A stretch of DNA of 64,000 bases from Rhodocyclales bacterium (GTDB lineage Bacteria; Pseudomonadota; Gammaproteobacteria; Burkholderiales; Rhodocyclaceae). The stretch spans positions 172,951 to 236,950 of the forward strand of contig JACRMV010000006.1 of the NCBI GenBank assembly GCA_016235025.1, read 5' to 3'. Positions 56,826 to 64,000 of the stretch are shown piece after piece. How positions within the stretch are numbered: position 1 is the stretch's first letter; each line of letters opens with the position of its first letter. A model generated the notes under the pieces. That model did no database searches. It saw only the letters and a list, made by a program, of their open reading frames with translations, and was not told the origin of the DNA. The position numbers and the translations under genes are program-made.

Positions 56826-57239
56826 TCAGGCCGGCGGATTCCCCGCTATGCAGGGGATAGACTCGTCCATCTTCACCCACGGCTGGGCGGAAGTGCACCA
56901 GATGTTCATCTGCGGCTTGAGCCACGACGTGTCATCGAGTGTACCGGCCTTGAGAAAGTCCATCGTCGGCATCGCATCCACCTCGGTCACGATCGGCGAT
57001 CCGCAGTTCGCGCAGAAGCGGCGAAAAACCGGCAAGCCACTGTCGCCGACATCCTGGTAGGTGGCCGGTTGCCCGGTTTCGAAAACCAGCGATCCCTTCG
57101 GCACAGCAACAACAATCGAAAACGCAGTGCCGGTCTGGCGCTGGCAGTGCTTGCAATGGCAGATCGCCGTCATCAGCGGTGCGGCAGCCGACGTATAACG
57201 AATGGCGCCACACAAACATTGGCCGTGAATTTTCTCCAT
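56826..57239 (-). CDS. GFA/CENP-V family Zn protein
   Basis: GQCLCG, CHCKHCQR, RRFCANCGSP. Confidence 0.9.
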   Translation of the reverse strand: MEKIHGQCLCGAIRYTSAAAPLMTAICHCKHCQRQTGTAFSIVVAVPKGSLVFETGQPATYQDVGDSGLPVFRRFCANCGSPIVTEVDAMPTMDFLKAGTLDDTSWLKPQMNIWCTSAQPWVKMDESIPCIAGNPPA

Positions 57240-57305: not shown

Positions 57306-58394
57306 TCAGGTATTTTTTATCACAATATTGGGAAATTTGCTGCTGTGATCCTGTGCCCGCTCCGCCAGCTTGACGGCGACGCGGCGTGCGATCGTGGCAT
57401 AGATTTCGGCGATGCGGCCCTGCGGCTCGGCCGCCACGGTCGGATTTCCGGCATCCGCCTGGACACGAATCGCCATATCGAGCGGCAAGGCGCCGAGCAT
57501 CTCGATGCCGTAGTCCTGCGCCATGCGCTCGCCGCCGCCAGTGCCGAAAATGTGCTCTTCGTGGCCGCACTTCGAACAGATATGGATGCTCATGTTTTCC
57601 ACCACACCGAGAATCGGCACGCCGACTTTTTCGAACATCTTGAGCCCCTTCCGCGCATCGAGCAGCGCGATGTCCTGCGGCGTGGTGACGATCACCGCGC
57701 CGGTGACCGGCACCTGTTGCGACAGGGTGAGCTGGATGTCGCCGGTGCCCGGTGGCATGTCGATGATCAGGTAATCCACATCGCGCCAGCGGGTTTCGGT
57801 CAAAAGCTGCGTCAGCGCCTGGGTCACCATCGGCCCGCGCCAGACCATCGGCTGCTCCGGGTCGATCAGCAGGCCGATCGACATGGCTTGCACCCCATGC
57901 GCGACCATCGGCTCCAGGCCGCGGTTTTCTGCGGCTTCGGGCTGATCGCGAATACCCAGCATCTGCGGCAGCGACGGGCCGTAGATATCCGCATCGAGAA
58001 TGCCGACACTGGCCCCCTCCTTTGCCAGCGCCAGCGCCAGATTCACCGCCGTGGTGGACTTGCCGACGCCGCCCTTGCCGGAAGCCACGGCGATGATGTT
58101 CTTGACACCCGGAATCAGCTTGACGCCGCGCTGCACGGCGTGGGTAACGATTTTGGAATAGACATTGACACTGATGTTGCCGATGCCGGGAACCGTTTTC
58201 AGTTGCGCGATGATGGCGGCACGCAACGTATCGATCTGGCTTTGCGCCGGATAACCCAGTTCGACGTCGAGCGCCACATCGTTGCCGGAAACGCGGATGT
58301 TTTTCGCACTGCGCGTGGTAACGAAATCCTTGCCGGTATTGGGATCGACGACGGCCTTGAGCGCGGCCTGGATGCTTTGTTCGGTGATGGTCAT
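57306..58394 (-). CDS. apbC: Fe-S cluster carrier ATPase ApbC/Mrp
   Basis: SGKGGVGKST, WRGPM, DMPPGTGD, VENMS..CSKC. Confidence 0.96.
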   Translation of the reverse strand: MTITEQSIQAALKAVVDPNTGKDFVTTRSAKNIRVSGNDVALDVELGYPAQSQIDTLRAAIIAQLKTVPGIGNISVNVYSKIVTHAVQRGVKLIPGVKNIIAVASGKGGVGKSTTAVNLALALAKEGASVGILDADIYGPSLPQMLGIRDQPEAAENRGLEPMVAHGVQAMSIGLLIDPEQPMVWRGPMVTQALTQLLTETRWRDVDYLIIDMPPGTGDIQLTLSQQVPVTGAVIVTTPQDIALLDARKGLKMFEKVGVPILGVVENMSIHICSKCGHEEHIFGTGGGERMAQDYGIEMLGALPLDMAIRVQADAGNPTVAAEPQGRIAEIYATIARRVAVKLAERAQDHSSKFPNIVIKNT

Positions 58395-58512: not shown

Positions 58513-60645
58513 ATGCCCACCATGACTCTGCGCAAGCTCCTCATTACCTCCGCCCTGCCCTACGCCAATGGCGCGATCCATCTCGGCCATCTGGTCGAAT
58601 ATATCCAGACCGATATCTGGGTCCGTTTCCAGAAAATGCGCGGCCATGAATGCTGGTATGTCTGCGCCGACGACACCCACGGCACACCGATCATGCTGCG
58701 CGCCGAGAAGGAAGGCATCACGCCGGAGCAACTGATCGAGCGCGTGCATGCCGAACACAGCCGCGACTTCGCCGGCTTCCATGTCGCCTTCGACAACTAT
58801 TACACAACGCATTCGAACGAGACCCGCGACTATGCCGTTGAAATTTACGGCAAGCTCAAGGCGGCCGACCTGATTGCCGTGCGTGCCGTCGAACAGTTTT
58901 ACGATCCGCTCAAACAGATGTTCCTGCCCGACCGCTTCATCAAGGGCAACTGCCCGAAATGCGGCGCGAAAGACCAATACGGCGACAGTTGCGAAGTCTG
59001 CGGCGCAGTTTATGCGCCGACCGATCTGAACAACCCCTACTCGGCCCTTTCCGGCGCCAAACCCGAGCTGCGCAACTCCGAACATTTCTTTTTCAAACTC
59101 TCCGATCCGCGCTGCCAGGCATTCCTCCGGCAGTGGACCCGCAGTGAAGACCGCTTGCAGCCGGAAGCCGCCAACAAGATGCAGGAATGGCTCGGTGCGG
59201 AAAATGAAAACAAACTCAGCGACTGGGACATCTCGCGCGACGCGCCCTACTTCGGCTTCGAGATTCCCGACGCGCCAGGCAAGTACTTCTATGTCTGGCT
59301 CGACGCCCCGGTCGGTTATATGGGTTCATTCCGGAATCTCTGCGCACAGCGGGGGCTCGACTTCGATGCCTTCTGGCGCAAGGATTCCAGCGTCGAGCTG
59401 ATTCACTTCATCGGCAAGGACATCCTTTATTTCCATGCCCTGTTCTGGCCGGCGATGCTCGAATACACCGGCTATCGCACGCCGAGCAAAATTTTCGCCC
59501 ACGGCTTCCTCACCGTCGACGGCGCCAAGATGAGCAAGTCGCGCGGCACATTCATCACCGCCGAATCCTATCTGGCGCAGGGCCTCAATCCGGAATGGCT
59601 GCGCTACTACTACGCCGCCAAGCTCAACGGCACGATGGAAGACATCGACCTCAACCTCGGTGACTTCGTCGCCCGCGTCAATTCCGACCTGATCGGCAAG
59701 TACATCAACATCGCCAGCCGCTCGGCGAATTTCATTGCCAGCCATTTTTCCAGCCAGCTACTGGATGAGAATTTCGACGAACGCTTCCGCAGCGACCTGC
59801 CTGATCTGGCGCTCGCGGCCGACGAAATCGCGGCGCATTACGAAGCGCGTGATTACGGCCGGGCCATCCGTCGCATCATGGGCCTGGCCGACCAGGTCAA
59901 TCAATACGTCGACCATCACCAACCCTGGAAGCTGGCCAGGCACGGCGGCAAAGAGCGCGAATTGCATGTGGTCTGCACCATGCTGATCAATGCCTTCCGC
60001 CTGCTCACGCTCTATCTCAAGCCGGTGCTGCCCAAGCTTGCCCAGCGCGCCGAGGAATTCCTCAACATTGCGCCGCTGGTCTGGGCCGATGCCGGCCACC
60101 TGCTGCCGCCATCCCATCTGATCAACAGCTACGAACATCTGATGCAGCGCATCGATGCCAAACAGATCGAAGCGCTCGTCGCTGCCAATCGCGAATCGCT
60201 CACGCCTTCCCCCGTTGCCCAGCCGGAGCCGCACTCACCGCAGCGCCACGCCCAGCATCAACAGCATCCCGAGAACAACATGCAAACACCGACCCGCCCC
60301 GTTGCGCCCGCCATCTCGATCGACGACTTCGGCAAGATCGACCTGCGCATCGCCCGCATCGCCGACGCGCAGCATGTCGAGGGCGCCGACAAACTGATTC
60401 GCCTGAGCCTCGATCTCGGCGAAGGCAGCACGCGCCAGGTCTTCGCCGGCATCAAGTCGGCCTACGACCCGGCACGGCTGGTTGGCCGTCTCACCGTGAT
60501 GGTCGCCAACCTCGCTCCGCGCAAGATGAAATTCGGCCTCTCCGAAGGCATGGTGCTGGCCGCCTCCGATGTCGACGGAGAAACGCCCGGCCTGTTCCTG
60601 CTCTCCCCCGACAGCGGCGCGACACCCGGCATGCGCGTCAAGTAA
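58513..60645 (+). CDS. metG: Methionine--tRNA ligase with C-terminal tRNA-binding domain
   Basis: [41 protein letters not shown]. Confidence 0.98.
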
Positions 60646-60679: not shown

Positions 60680-61276
60680 ATGGCTGTACTCGTCGGCAAA
60701 AAAGCCCCCGATTTCACTGCAACTGCCGTCTATGGCGACAACGACATAAAAGAACTCACGCTCTCCTCGCTGCAAGGCAAGTACGTCGTGCTGTTTTTCT
60801 ATCCGCTCGACTTCACCTTCGTCTGCCCGTCCGAACTGATCGCCTTCGATCGCCGCCTCGAAGAATTCAGGAAGCGCAATGTCGAGGTCATCGGCTGTTC
60901 GATCGACTCGCAATTCACGCACCTGGCCTGGAAAAACACGCCGGTGGAAAAAGGCGGCATCGGCCAGGTCGGCTATCCCCTGGTTGCCGACATCACCCAC
61001 GCCATTTGCCAGGCCTATGACGTCGAAGCCGCCGAGGGCGTCGCCTTCCGCGGCTCCTTCCTGATCGACCAGGCCGGCGTGGTCCAGCACCAGATCGTAA
61101 ACAACCTGCCGCTCGGCCGCGACATCGACGAGATGCTGCGTATCGTCGATGCCCTGCAATTCACCGAAGCGCACGGCGAAGTCTGCCCGGCCGGCTGGCA
61201 AAAGGGCAAGACCGGCATGCAGGCCTCGCCCGACGGCGTCGCCAGATACCTTGCCGAACACGCCCAGGCGCTCTGA
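60680..61276 (+). CDS. Typical 2-Cys peroxiredoxin (AhpC/Prx1)
   Basis: FFYPLDFTFVCPSE and GEVCPAGW. Confidence 0.95.
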   Translation: MAVLVGKKAPDFTATAVYGDNDIKELTLSSLQGKYVVLFFYPLDFTFVCPSELIAFDRRLEEFRKRNVEVIGCSIDSQFTHLAWKNTPVEKGGIGQVGYPLVADITHAICQAYDVEAAEGVAFRGSFLIDQAGVVQHQIVNNLPLGRDIDEMLRIVDALQFTEAHGEVCPAGWQKGKTGMQASPDGVARYLAEHAQAL

Positions 61277-61291: not shown

Positions 61292-61321
61292 AACCGCCCC
61301 GCCCTCCGGGGCGGTTTTTTG
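61292..61321 (+). terminator. Rho-independent terminator
   Basis: AACCGCCCC-GCCCTCC-GGGGCGGTT followed by TTTT. Confidence 0.85.
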
Positions 61322-61337
61322 CCCGCCGCCTTCCTGC

Positions 61338-61401: not shown

Positions 61402-63210
61402 ATGCAGGCGTTACGTCACATCCGGCCCTACCTCACCCTGATCGGCTTTACGCTGGCGCTGGCGCTGGGCTTTCTCATTCATTCGGCGCACCCGCTGCGC
61501 TTTGCCGACCAGGCGCTGTACGACATGCAGACCCGCTGGCTGCGCGCAAACGCCCCCACGCCACTGGCACAGGACGTGGTGGTGATCGGCCTCGACGAAG
61601 CCGCCTACGAAACCATTCCCGAACCCACAGCGCTCTGGCATCGGCACCTGGCCGACCTGCTCACCGGCCTGGCCCAGGCGCGACCGGCAGTCGTCGGACT
61701 GGCCACGCCGCTGCCAGTTCGCTCATACAACTTTCTCGTCGAGAACATCGACATTCCGCTGACCGAAGCCCTGAAGCGACAAAAGAGCGCCGCACCGCTG
61801 GTGATCGGCCAGCCCTTTGGCATCGGCAGGCAACTGCGGCCGATTGCGCCCGAAATGCTGGCAGCCGCAGGCGCCGACACCATTGCCTCGCTGGCGATCT
61901 GTGAAGACGCCGACGGCGTGGTGCGGCGCATCAACCAGCCGCGTTGCCGGCCAGAGGCCAAAACCGAGCCGCTGGCGCTGGCAATGGCGCGCCATCTCGG
62001 GCGGCAGGGCGCGGCCAGCGGCATGATCGACTACACCGTCGGCGGGCCGATCGACTACACGCCCGTAGGCGACGTGCTGGATTGGATCCGCCGCGGCGAA
62101 CACGACAAGGTGCGCACACTGGTCGAGGGGCGCGCCGTGGTTATCGCCAACCTGCTGCCGACCGAGACCCGTCATCGCCTGCCGGTACAACTGGCGGCCT
62201 GGGAACCCGGCAGTCGTACCGAGCCGGGCGCCGTGGTACACATCCAGGCATTGCGTTCGCTCCTGGCACAGGGACTGATCGAGCGCGTTCCGGTAACGGT
62301 CTCGCTGCTGCTGATCGGCCTCGCCAGCCTGTTCTGGTTCGGCCCGCACAGCCGGCGCAAAGTCCTGCTGGCCACGGCAGTCGCGCTCGCGCTTGGAGCC
62401 GGCTCGACCTATGCGCTGTGGAACAAGTATTACCTGCCTACCGCCACGGTGCTGGGCTGCCTGTTGCTGGCGTTTACATTGCGCGCCGTCTGGGATGGCG
62501 TGCGCCAGTATCGGCACAAACAGGCATTGCGCGGCATGCTCGCCGGGCACGTCAGTCCGCAGGTGCTGCGCGCGATTCTCGGCGGCACACTGGAGCTTGA
62601 AGGCGAAGGCCAACGCTGCCGGGTGACGCTGCTGGCGACCGGGATTCGCGGCTTCTCGCAGCGCAGCGAACAAGGTGCTCCCGCCGCCATGATCGATCTC
62701 CTCAACCGTTTTTATGCCGAGGCCGCCGCCGCCATCCAGAATCATGGCGGCGCCATCGACCAGTACATCGGCGACGGGCTGGTCGCCGTGTTCGGTGTGC
62801 CGCAGCCGCTGGACGCACCGCAGCGTAATGCGCTCGAGGCCGCACAGGAAATCCTGTGGCGGCTTGAACGCCTGAATGCCGAACTGACGGCCAATGCCCA
62901 GGAAAAATTACAAATCGGCATTGGCCTGCATGAGGACGATGTCCTCGCCGGATATGTCGGTTCGCCGCAGCATCGTGACTTCTCGGTGATCGGCGCCGCC
63001 GTCATTCGCGTCCAGGAACTGCAAGCCCTGACCCGGAAAACCGCGCATCCGATACTCCTTACAGAAGAAGTCGCCCGGGCCGCGGGCTTTGCGGGCGGCA
63101 TGGAAAATCTTGGCCCGTTGCCGCTGCGCGACGGCACGACGCCGCCGCTCTGGGGCTGGACTCCGCCGCAGCCCCTGGCCATGAGCCCGAAAACGGAACC
63201 AACGTCATGA
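61402..63210 (+). CDS. CHASE2-domain protein with degenerate class III nucleotide-cyclase domain
   Basis: TM, CHASE2 (DVVVIGLDE, DADGVVRR, PGAVVH), three TM, cyclase fold (IRGF, YIGDG, IGIGLH) with catalytic residues altered. Confidence 0.85.
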   Translation: MQALRHIRPYLTLIGFTLALALGFLIHSAHPLRFADQALYDMQTRWLRANAPTPLAQDVVVIGLDEAAYETIPEPTALWHRHLADLLTGLAQARPAVVGLATPLPVRSYNFLVENIDIPLTEALKRQKSAAPLVIGQPFGIGRQLRPIAPEMLAAAGADTIASLAICEDADGVVRRINQPRCRPEAKTEPLALAMARHLGRQGAASGMIDYTVGGPIDYTPVGDVLDWIRRGEHDKVRTLVEGRAVVIANLLPTETRHRLPVQLAAWEPGSRTEPGAVVHIQALRSLLAQGLIERVPVTVSLLLIGLASLFWFGPHSRRKVLLATAVALALGAGSTYALWNKYYLPTATVLGCLLLAFTLRAVWDGVRQYRHKQALRGMLAGHVSPQVLRAILGGTLELEGEGQRCRVTLLATGIRGFSQRSEQGAPAAMIDLLNRFYAEAAAAIQNHGGAIDQYIGDGLVAVFGVPQPLDAPQRNALEAAQEILWRLERLNAELTANAQEKLQIGIGLHEDDVLAGYVGSPQHRDFSVIGAAVIRVQELQALTRKTAHPILLTEEVARAAGFAGGMENLGPLPLRDGTTPPLWGWTPPQPLAMSPKTEPTS

Positions 63211-63962
63211 GCAGCGCACCTTCCGCCACCACCCGATTGACCGGCTACACCCTGCTCGCCTGGGCCGCCGCGCGGCGCTGGCGCAGCGCGCGACAGCCCC
63301 TGGTGCACCACGCCTTTCTGCATCACGCGCATGACGCAGGCATCACCGCGCTGCCAGTGACCGGCCTGCTGGCGGCGCTGCTCGGCGCCACGCTGGTGAC
63401 CCAGCTCACAGCGCTGGCCGGCACCGACAGCGACCTGATGCAACGTCTGGTATTTCTCGGCCTGTTTTTCGAGCTGGCGCCGTTGATTACAGCGCTGATC
63501 GTCGTCTCCCGCAGCAGCGCGGCGATCACCTCGGAACTGGCGGTGATGCGGCTGCATGACGATTTCACCGCCCTGCGCCAGCTCCGCGTGCCGCTGGTCG
63601 ATTATCTTTTCCTGCCGCGCATCCTTGCCCTCGCGGTGGTGTTGCCTGTCCTCACCCTGATCTTCCAGGTGATCGCCGTCGGCAGCGGCTGGCTGGCCGT
63701 GGCGCTGCTGCAAAATCTTTCGCTCAATGAAGTGGCTGGCCGTTTCCTCGATCTCGCCGATCCGCTGCTGATGCTGGCGAGCCTGGGCAAAAGCGCGCTG
63801 ACCGGCGCACTCATCGGCCTCATCGCCTGCTATCACGGCCGGGCGGCCGTGGCCTCGGCCGAGGCCATTGCCAAAGCCACGACCCAGTCGATCGGCAATG
63901 GCCTGGTGGCCGTCTTCGTCATTGACGGCATGTCTGCCCTGCTGATCTGGTTTGCGCAATGA
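63207..63962 (+). CDS. MlaE-like ABC permease
   Basis: ELAPLITALIVVSRSSAAITSELAVM..PRILA..KS..G..ATT; ATGA overlaps on both sides. Confidence 0.85.
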   Translation: MSSAPSATTRLTGYTLLAWAAARRWRSARQPLVHHAFLHHAHDAGITALPVTGLLAALLGATLVTQLTALAGTDSDLMQRLVFLGLFFELAPLITALIVVSRSSAAITSELAVMRLHDDFTALRQLRVPLVDYLFLPRILALAVVLPVLTLIFQVIAVGSGWLAVALLQNLSLNEVAGRFLDLADPLLMLASLGKSALTGALIGLIACYHGRAAVASAEAIAKATTQSIGNGLVAVFVIDGMSALLIWFAQ

Positions 63963-64000
63963 GCGACGTCACCCATGACGCCACGGCGCCACACTGGGAT
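63959..64000 (+). CDS. Start of next coupled ORF (MSDVTHDATAPHWD..), truncated by window end
   Basis: ATG overlaps the permease TGA; open to the edge; too short to identify. Confidence 0.4.
   Translation, partial: MSDVTHDATAPHWD

Follow-up and report, generated by a model that had tools for sequence, protein, structure and literature searches.

What does a receptor do whose cyclase domain appears to lack the means of making a cyclic nucleotide, and why is its gene chained to that of an MlaE-like permease? Both questions are raised by the 3' end of a 64,000-nucleotide stretch of DNA (the window, here the whole stretch that was analysed) from a Rhodocyclales bacterium (GenBank assembly GCA_016235025.1, contig JACRMV010000006.1, positions 172,951 to 236,950 of the forward strand). 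Three genes follow one another there on the plus strand: gene 1 (61402-63210; 602 aa), for a membrane protein with a CHASE2 and a cyclase-homology domain; gene 2 (63207-63962; 251 aa), for a divergent MlaE-like permease, both with an ATG start in the list of open reading frames (ORFs); and the first 14 codons of gene 3 (63959-64000), which continues past the end of the window.

In the answer proposed here, which we hold with moderate confidence, these genes open a conserved five-gene Mla-like envelope operon, a reduced form of a larger cyclase/caspase system, whose products would work as one complex with a non-catalytic cyclase subunit. Judged by its sequences, this is an undescribed, probably ATP-independent Mla-like envelope module tied to cyclic-nucleotide signalling. 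An earlier note on this DNA, made from its letters, had singled out the pseudocyclase; that claim is correct, and secondary to the larger system.

Gene content and conservation of the operon

Contigs identical to the window (L001-L007) add three genes 3' of mlaE, encoding a 206-aa protein, a MlaD-like protein and a lipoprotein, and the complete operon comprises five genes (CHASE2-cyclase, MlaE-like, pNBD, MlaD-like, TPR-like lipoprotein). The label pNBD is given here to the 206-aa protein, a relic of an ABC nucleotide-binding domain (NBD), whose aa 1-14 match the first 14 codons of gene 3 in the window at 100%. In the raw sequence, successive frames share ATGA stop/start overlaps at 63207-63210 (gene 1/gene 2) and 63959-63962 (gene 2/gene 3). 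The coupling to an MlaE-like gene, as read in the earlier note, is real and general: mlaE lies directly 3' of the cyclase gene in all 69 non-redundant loci in which both genes could be placed, with a 4-nt overlap in 65 of the 69, and mlaE and pNBD overlap in 58 of 70 short operons, the form without an inserted cassette.

The linkage, whose survey that note had proposed, held from both sides from which it was searched. With the cyclase, 287 homologs were found at E<=1e-10 (120 listed, 57-96% identical), and the loci in species-level genomes (n=43) belong to Sulfuritalea, other Rhodocyclales, Hylemonella, Curvibacter and other Burkholderiales; an independent search with pNBD gave 68 metagenome loci, each again with the cyclase and MlaE. 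The order cyclase, mlaE, pNBD, mlaD, lipoprotein is found in every locus with enough flanking DNA (about 100 loci), the long form carrying an inserted cassette, and the locus is syntenic throughout, with MetG and a peroxiredoxin upstream and HTH_92 and 4HBT thioesterases downstream. A literature search returned nothing relevant on CHASE2 with MlaE, on MlaE and MlaD with an adenylate cyclase, or on MCE systems whose Walker A is degenerate. Each part comes from a known family (CHASE2, class III cyclase-homology domain, MlaE, MCE, ABC NBD); in the literature searched, neither a module that pairs an MlaE-type permease with a relic NBD nor a link between such a module and CHASE2 cyclases or caspases was found to be described.

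The gene 2 product belongs to the permease family of MlaFEDB-type transporters (Pfam MlaE, PF02405, 2.1e-41). It stays under the NCBIfam MlaE cut-offs (112.9 against 212.2 bits), which places it in a divergent MlaE subfamily; its match to the solved MlaE is weak (9e-12), and it is closer to the MlaE of two distant relatives described below, L129 (2e-31) and L127 (5e-28). Gene 4, past the window end, encodes a 310-aa protein that is, like MlaD, membrane-anchored with a single MCE domain (N-terminal transmembrane segment, TM; PF02470, 1.9e-15) and that continues into a long helical tail; in related modules, the MlaD-like proteins match the Pfam model "Helical_needle" weakly or faintly. Gene 5, also past the window end, encodes a lipoprotein whose lipobox reads LLAAC and whose TPR matches are weak (genes at L001:4465-5244, L008:17465-18334, L127:6175-7053 and L129:11064-11924). 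All accessory proteins carry a signal peptide or a lipobox, and no gene for MlaB (STAS), MlaC or MlaA was found within the operon in any locus. A mid-protein Cys pair of the lipoprotein is conserved across phyla ("KCAPQCP", "ACTADCP", "CSNECP", "CKENAC") and may form a periplasmic disulfide.

The window-lineage pNBD has no Pfam match, and every one of its NCBIfam matches lies far below its cut-off. Nevertheless, the family profile recovers only ABC ATPases from the PDB (101 sequences at E<=1, best 1.4e-4), all 25 NCBIfam families listed of the 52 matched are ABC ATP-binding proteins, and the LptB and FtsE models are matched, all far below cut-off, by 19 of 20 members (best 5.8e-6) and by 17 of 20 (best 3e-6), respectively; the automatic names given by JGI to pNBD relatives are likewise MlaF, LptB or FtsE-type ATPases. 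Profile alignments put "GVLPA" in place of the Q-loop Gln and "LERIE" in place of LSGGQ, and reveal no Walker A (GxxGxGK[ST]); Walker B reads LLVLDR, with an Asp-Arg that is invariant at the Walker B/catalytic-Glu position across a 20-sequence alignment. The set that defines an MlaF ATPase (Walker A, Q-loop, LSGGQ, Walker B and catalytic Glu) is thus missing, and pNBD is, as far as its sequence tells, an ABC nucleotide-binding-domain relic for which no canonical ATP binding or hydrolysis is predicted. Of the MlaF- and MlaD-like genes that the earlier note suggested looking for downstream, the MlaD-like one was found, together with the lipoprotein, whereas the place of MlaF is taken by a degenerate NBD; this makes "transporter", the term used there, doubtful, since the module's own NBD lacks every ATPase motif.

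An exhaustive profile search collected 218 pNBD-like representatives at E<=1e-3, 59 of them at E<=1e-10, and the relic-NBD family forms a gradient from proteins of 170-227 aa without Walker A, through proteins of 250-268 aa with GxxGxGKT and without LSGGQ, to true ABC ATPases, reached only at E about 1e-6 to 1e-5. In the intermediate class, the MlaF-like P0455, P0469, P0475 and P0507 (250-268 aa) have a canonical Walker A, "xxRxWxxR" for LSGGQ and, in most cases, DA, DN or DS as their Walker B residues; judging by these motifs, they may be NBDs that have degenerated halfway and stand between true MlaF and the relic family. Most pNBDs also have a Cys-rich C-terminal tail (C-x(8-14)-CPC, CHC or CPS) and an H-loop-like "DLDSHELP" (alignment A3; genes compared at L001:2916-3536, L008:15935-16549, L010:12528-13157 and others). 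The window-lineage protein (L001) has neither and ends in "...DLAADDARHAIAPMEVA", a loss that matches the more extreme cyclase decay of this lineage. A tblastn search of plasmids gave no match to a pNBD-like protein, and Foldseek matches of a pNBD model, with Cas1 on top at E 0.08, were judged to be noise.

Could the missing ATPase be encoded elsewhere? The main rival, which we consider unlikely, is an ATP-driven lipid transporter of the Mla/Mce type energised by, for example, a shared MlaF, with pNBD as no more than an accessory or regulatory subunit and the CHASE2 protein as a regulator. The MlaE-like and MlaD-like proteins are bona fide members of their families, mycobacterial Mce systems set a precedent for such an arrangement, and Walker A is kept in the four remote relatives named above. 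Nonetheless, no ATPase gene was seen in about 110 neighbourhoods, and pNBD is always in the operon, after mlaE in short operons and after the inserted cassette in long ones, with frames that usually overlap or nearly abut. Furthermore, the region of an NBD to which pNBD aligns comprises the helices and Walker B, and it is with this region that an NBD binds the coupling helix of the permease; pNBD would therefore compete with an external ATPase for that site.

The long form shows what the reduced operon has lost. Between mlaE and pNBD it holds genes for CHASE2b (569 aa, Pfam CHASE2 9e-53, no output domain) and for a caspase C14+DUF4384 protein (564 aa, signal peptide, intact SGHG and DACHSG motifs), and 3' of the lipoprotein gene it ends with one for a secreted DUF4384 protein. 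A second cyclase domain hidden in CHASE2b, as in a C1/C2-like heterodimer, was considered and is not supported, since the alignment is confined to the CHASE2 parts; a PDB search with the C-terminal tail of CHASE2b gave no match. The same trio of CHASE2-only, secreted caspase C14+DUF4384 and DUF4384 proteins also stands alone in Rhodocyclaceae-type contigs (L124:10001-14417, L125:10001-14380, L126:8990-13420), divergent from a gene for a TPR+CHAT protein of about 1000 aa and with neither Mla-like genes nor a cyclase; it is the cassette interleaved in the long operons.

More distant versions shuffle the same genes. In L129, whose cyclase is 40% identical to the window protein, the order is CHASE2-cyclase, 288-aa secreted protein, MlaE, caspase+DUF4384, pNBD, MlaD, TPR and DUF4384-like; a second contig (the one encoding P0386) has caspase, pNBD, MlaD, TPR, 281-aa protein, CHASE2-cyclase, 284-aa protein and MlaE, and further partial versions were seen. 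The secreted protein of about 285 aa between CHASE2-cyclase and mlaE in these versions (L129:6069-6935; P0386 contig) has no Pfam match, and its gene is absent from the betaproteobacterial operons. In L127 (3773-8246), a metagenome-assembled genome (MAG) of Nitrospirae, the order is MlaE, a 225-aa NBD relic with "DSDDEKN" where Walker A would be and "IIYDS" in the Walker B position, MlaD and TPR; in place of the cyclase there is, after these, a BrkB/YihY-type membrane protein fused to a domain binding cyclic nucleoside monophosphates (cNMP), and then come a PPIase gene and a FapA-like gene. The MlaD proteins of L127 and L129 match that of the window lineage at about 1e-42, against 2e-3 for canonical MlaD, and their TPR lipoproteins do so at 1e-12 to 1e-16. 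On these comparisons, the four core proteins of the three lineages are mutually closer than they are to canonical Mla, and the MlaE-pNBD-MlaD-TPR module appears beside cyclic-nucleotide components in two unrelated ways.

Co-occurrence of this kind bears on a second rival, quite unlikely in our view, in which the genes are merely co-transcribed and the CHASE2 pseudocyclase acts on its own, as a sensor or a decoy receptor, with no contact to the Mla-like proteins. ATGA overlaps, which many bacterial operons have, prove that genes are expressed together but not that their products touch, and no cyclase-Mla fusion was recognised by length among the homologs found. However, the same families stay together down to about 40% protein identity and across three or more gene orders, a pattern typical of subunits of one machine; pNBD relatives were never found without MlaD and, given enough flank, had a cyclase and MlaE or a cNMP-binding protein nearby. 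As to expression itself, the sequencing runs containing the locus are groundwater and other environmental DNA metagenomes, with no RNA run among them.

The cyclase-homology domain and its history

The product of gene 1 has the layout of a CHASE2 receptor, with PF05226 between one N-terminal and several C-terminal TMs: TM1, a periplasmic CHASE2 domain (61471-62331, +; aa 24-310; 6.8e-19, over the gathering score, cut-off 26.3 bits), three TMs, a linker and a degenerate class III cyclase-homology domain (62620-63111, +; aa 407-570), in which Guanylate_cyc (PF00211) matches aa 407-545 (3e-10, also over the gathering score). Hydropathy, with a TM at aa 7-29 and peaks in aa 287-363, fits the usual CHASE2 topology. 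Among the matches listed, the closest homolog is a Rugosibacter sp. MAG protein with 96% identity. An AlphaFold2 (AF2) model of the CHASE2 domain (pLDDT 72.7, pTM 0.77) found no PDB fold better than E 0.39, and the idea that CHASE2 is itself caspase-like was considered and found no support.

Residues were called by alignment to solved cyclases, Cya2 (2w01 and 6fht; 4.5e-22 and 1.6e-22) and CyaC (1wc1). With "TLLATGIRGF" opposite "TILTSDLRGF", the first metal Asp is G414 (codon 62641-62643), and with "IDQYIGDG" opposite "IDKFMGDG", the substrate Lys is Q454 (codon 62761-62763), while the second metal Asp is retained as D458. The Thr partner position is S528 (K and T in canonical relatives), and "GAAVIRVQEL", opposite "GAQVNLTYRI" or "GPSVNIAARL", turns the transition-state Asn into I535 (codon 63004-63006) and the Arg into E539 (codon 63016-63018). 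The homology domain of a class III cyclase is recognisable by sequence; a full pair of metal Asp, a substrate-defining Lys or Glu paired with Thr, Asp or Ser, and the transition-state Asn and Arg are missing. The metal (C1-like) half lacks its first Asp, and the substrate/transition-state (C2-like) half lacks Lys, Asn and Arg. The gene 1 product is thus, by its predicted active site, a CHASE2 pseudocyclase with neither half-site complete, as the earlier note had it; the three motif strings quoted there recur at aa 412-418, 453-458 and 532-540. Since pNBD is degenerate as well, both cytoplasmic "enzymes" of the operon are without catalytic equipment.

The dead domain is nonetheless kept under purifying selection. 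By region (Nei-Gojobori), CHASE2 is the most constrained part of the protein (dN/dS 0.01-0.24), and the cyclase domain has dN/dS values of 0.11-0.32 in the degenerate clade against 0.05-0.17 in the canonical clade, with 0.19 between the window lineage and L012. Many non-catalytic positions are invariant across 10 sequences (56-79% identity), and no frameshift or stop was found in the ORFs of any locus.

How did the domain come to be this way? A six-letter code for positions 414, 454, 458, 528, 535 and 539, counted over distinct proteins, largely separates the two forms of the operon: Asp414 is kept in all 12 long operons (DKDTNR in 5, DKDTNQ in 5, DKDMNR in 1, DKDTTR in 1), whereas 49 of 52 short operons combine Gly414 with the absence of Asn535 (GKDSGR in 37; GQDSIE or GRDSIE in the window clade). 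The canonical DKDTNR occurs in 8 distinct MlaE-linked proteins, with one-residue variants in 7 more, and also in the distant L129. Orthologs of this kind had been named in the earlier note as evidence that would overturn its proposal, and their existence makes the dead cyclase a late, derived state that does not define the module; degeneracy cannot track MlaE linkage either, as that note had asked, for the linkage is universal. When L129 serves as the root, all 100 of 100 bootstraps recover the Gly414/short clade as monophyletic, and it falls within a paraphyletic Asp414 grade, itself monophyletic in only 20 of 100. By this nesting, the ancestor had a canonical Lys/Thr-type (adenylate-cyclase-like) domain and the caspase, and since the dead, caspase-less clade is monophyletic, there was one evolutionary event; the window form of the operon arose by loss from the larger system.

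Catalytic positions went on changing, with R539Q in the Hylemonella group, N535T in L050, sporadic changes of R539 within Sulfuritalea and, in the window clade, K454Q/R/H together with R539E and D532A, which suggests that catalysis is not the main constraint on the domain. Having lost Lys454 and Arg539 too, the window clade is the extreme of a degeneration series. A MAG assigned to Sulfuritalea hydrogenivorans sk43H has the short form (L053); a cultured strain of that species exists.

Is the domain perhaps still catalytic, by non-canonical chemistry or as a heterodimer with a cyclase encoded elsewhere? D458 and the fold-defining IRGF and GDG are kept in a domain under purifying selection, and the Sulfuritalea-type GKDSGR resembles a C2-like half-site missing only Asn. 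Yet the window protein lacks residues of both half-sites and could not complement a partner in either role, and no second cyclase gene was found in the operon or in the 64-kb window, which leaves this very improbable. That the domain is simply decaying as a pseudogene-like relic is scarcely credible: substitutions have hit catalytic positions repeatedly in different lineages (D414G with N535G as well as those just listed), but the frame is intact in all loci, dN/dS is low and many non-catalytic positions are invariant.

A proposed trans-envelope complex

In the preferred reading, the proteins would form one trans-envelope complex of a MlaE dimer, a pNBD dimer, a MlaD ring with its needle and the outer-membrane lipoprotein. 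Such a complex would not be an ATP-driven pump; it would be a scaffold or a passive conduit, or else, coupled to the CHASE2 receptor, it would relay conformational changes. Its ancestral output would have been cyclic AMP (cAMP), possibly made in answer to periplasmic proteolysis, and in the window lineage the catalytic output would have been lost while the cyclase-homology domain was kept as a non-catalytic subunit for dimerisation or docking.

Several points weigh against this reading. The case for a complex is drawn from the structure of the operon and its conservation, and a working ATPase may be encoded elsewhere, as happens with MceG in mycobacterial Mce systems. The AF2 model of pNBD, built on a 40-sequence alignment, is poor (pLDDT 55.7), so that only its NBD-like order of strands and helices was used and ABC ancestry is argued from weak but very consistent sequence matches. 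Three of the 52 short operons (L029, L056 and L070), all caspase-less, keep DKDTNR, which means that the caspase cassette can go without cyclase decay; as its loss and D414G/N535G form a single event, no statistical correlation is claimed, and the idea that degeneracy tracks caspase loss was downgraded to a single-event coincidence. Finally, Sulfuritalea-type proteins nearly always keep Lys454 and Arg539 and may still bind a nucleotide, in which case a "purely structural" role may not extend to the whole clade.

Why would such a module matter? Mla/MCE systems are central to outer-membrane lipid homeostasis, and the MlaE-type systems studied so far are, to our knowledge, all ATP-driven. With no ATPase motif left in its built-in NBD, this conserved subfamily raises the question of what the MlaE/MlaD architecture can do without ATP. 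As far as we know, the ligand and partners of CHASE2, named in 2003, have remained largely unknown, and an obligate genetic partnership with an Mla-like complex, ancestrally also with a secreted caspase-like protease, gives it a concrete and testable context. Moreover, the natural series from canonical to GKDSGR to GQDSIE within one operon is useful for asking how enzymes become pseudoenzyme subunits. A bolder extension, to which we give little credence, is that MlaE-pNBD-MlaD-TPR modules are cross-phylum, ATP-independent, outside-in signal transducers that relay envelope events (lipid state or caspase cleavage) to a cyclic-nucleotide component, which would be the CHASE2 adenylate cyclase in Betaproteobacteria and the cNMP-binding membrane protein in Nitrospirae. 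If true, this would be an ABC "mechanotransmission" machine without ATP and the first functional partner for the orphan CHASE2.

Surroundings and likeness to known systems

Upstream of the operon, the window carries genes for methionyl-tRNA synthetase (MetG; 58513-60645, +) and a 2-Cys peroxiredoxin (60680-61276, +), both identified by their match to genes with Pfam annotation in L008; relatives have an acylphosphatase gene between the two, which the window lacks. Further away, and from sequence reading alone, there are a GFA-like Cys-rich ORF (56826-57239, -) and a Mrp/ApbC-like P-loop protein with "GKGGVGKST" (57306-58394, -). An intrinsic-terminator-like hairpin of six G-C pairs and a 4-nt loop, with the T-run TTTTTT (61299-61324, +), lies 3' of the peroxiredoxin gene and marks the 5' boundary of the operon. 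In the leader region, an Rfam scan gave no match and no sigma-70-like promoter was found, and large antisense ORFs over the region (e.g., 62742..63959, -) were set aside as high-GC artefacts. A few kb downstream of many operons, including short ones without an in-operon caspase, additional secreted caspase C14 proteins, 602 aa long or, with DUF3108-like repeats, 888 aa long, are encoded on the opposite strand (L010:16342-19008, -; L008:19166-20974, -; also L031, L036 and L038); no homolog of them was found in the 64-kb window.

Among MCE systems, PqiAB and LetAB (YebST) likewise do without a dedicated ABC ATPase and build long, periplasm-spanning assemblies. They use a PqiA/LetA-family protein with multi-MCE proteins, neither of which is found here, whereas the window-type module uses an MlaE-type permease, a relic NBD and a single MCE domain. 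Mycobacterial Mce systems have two YrbE permeases, six Mce proteins and the ATPase MceG, shared in trans; the window-type operon, with one MlaE-like and one MCE gene, does not share that layout. Inactive class III cyclase domains whose fold is kept for regulation or dimerisation are known as well, from the pseudo-symmetric site of the mammalian C1/C2 pair to degenerate mycobacterial cyclases; unlike them, the window protein has both half-sites broken in the expected homodimer, and it stands in an envelope operon.

In the phospholipid ABC transporter MlaFEDB (E. coli, A. baumannii, P. aeruginosa; PDB 6xbd, 6z5u, 7ch8), one operon likewise encodes a PF02405 permease together with a subunit of NBD type and an anchored, single-MCE MlaD. 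In the window-type NBD, however, four elements are gone (Walker A, Q-loop Gln, LSGGQ, catalytic Glu); a gene for MlaB (STAS) is missing, the MlaD-like protein has about 180 extra helical residues, and the TPR-like lipoprotein and the CHASE2 receptor are obligate partners. For the other half of the ancestral system, caspase-CHASE2 fusions have been described in cyanobacteria (PMC3501461) and in EACC2 conflict systems (PMC8195603). The stand-alone cassette of L124-L126 is a further likeness: the long operons hold exactly its three members (CHASE2b, caspase+DUF4384 and DUF4384), and the window lineage has lost it.

The closest characterised CHASE2 cyclases are CyaD1, CyaD2 and CyaK of Sinorhizobium meliloti, which have the same CHASE2 and class III layout as the window protein, make cAMP that acts via Clr and work with the outer-membrane protein NsrA (PMC13001267). 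In contrast to them, the window protein lacks four catalytic residues, and its partners are Mla-like rather than a beta-barrel. Nevertheless, S. meliloti provides the precedent of a CHASE2 cyclase that needs a separate envelope protein for its signal.

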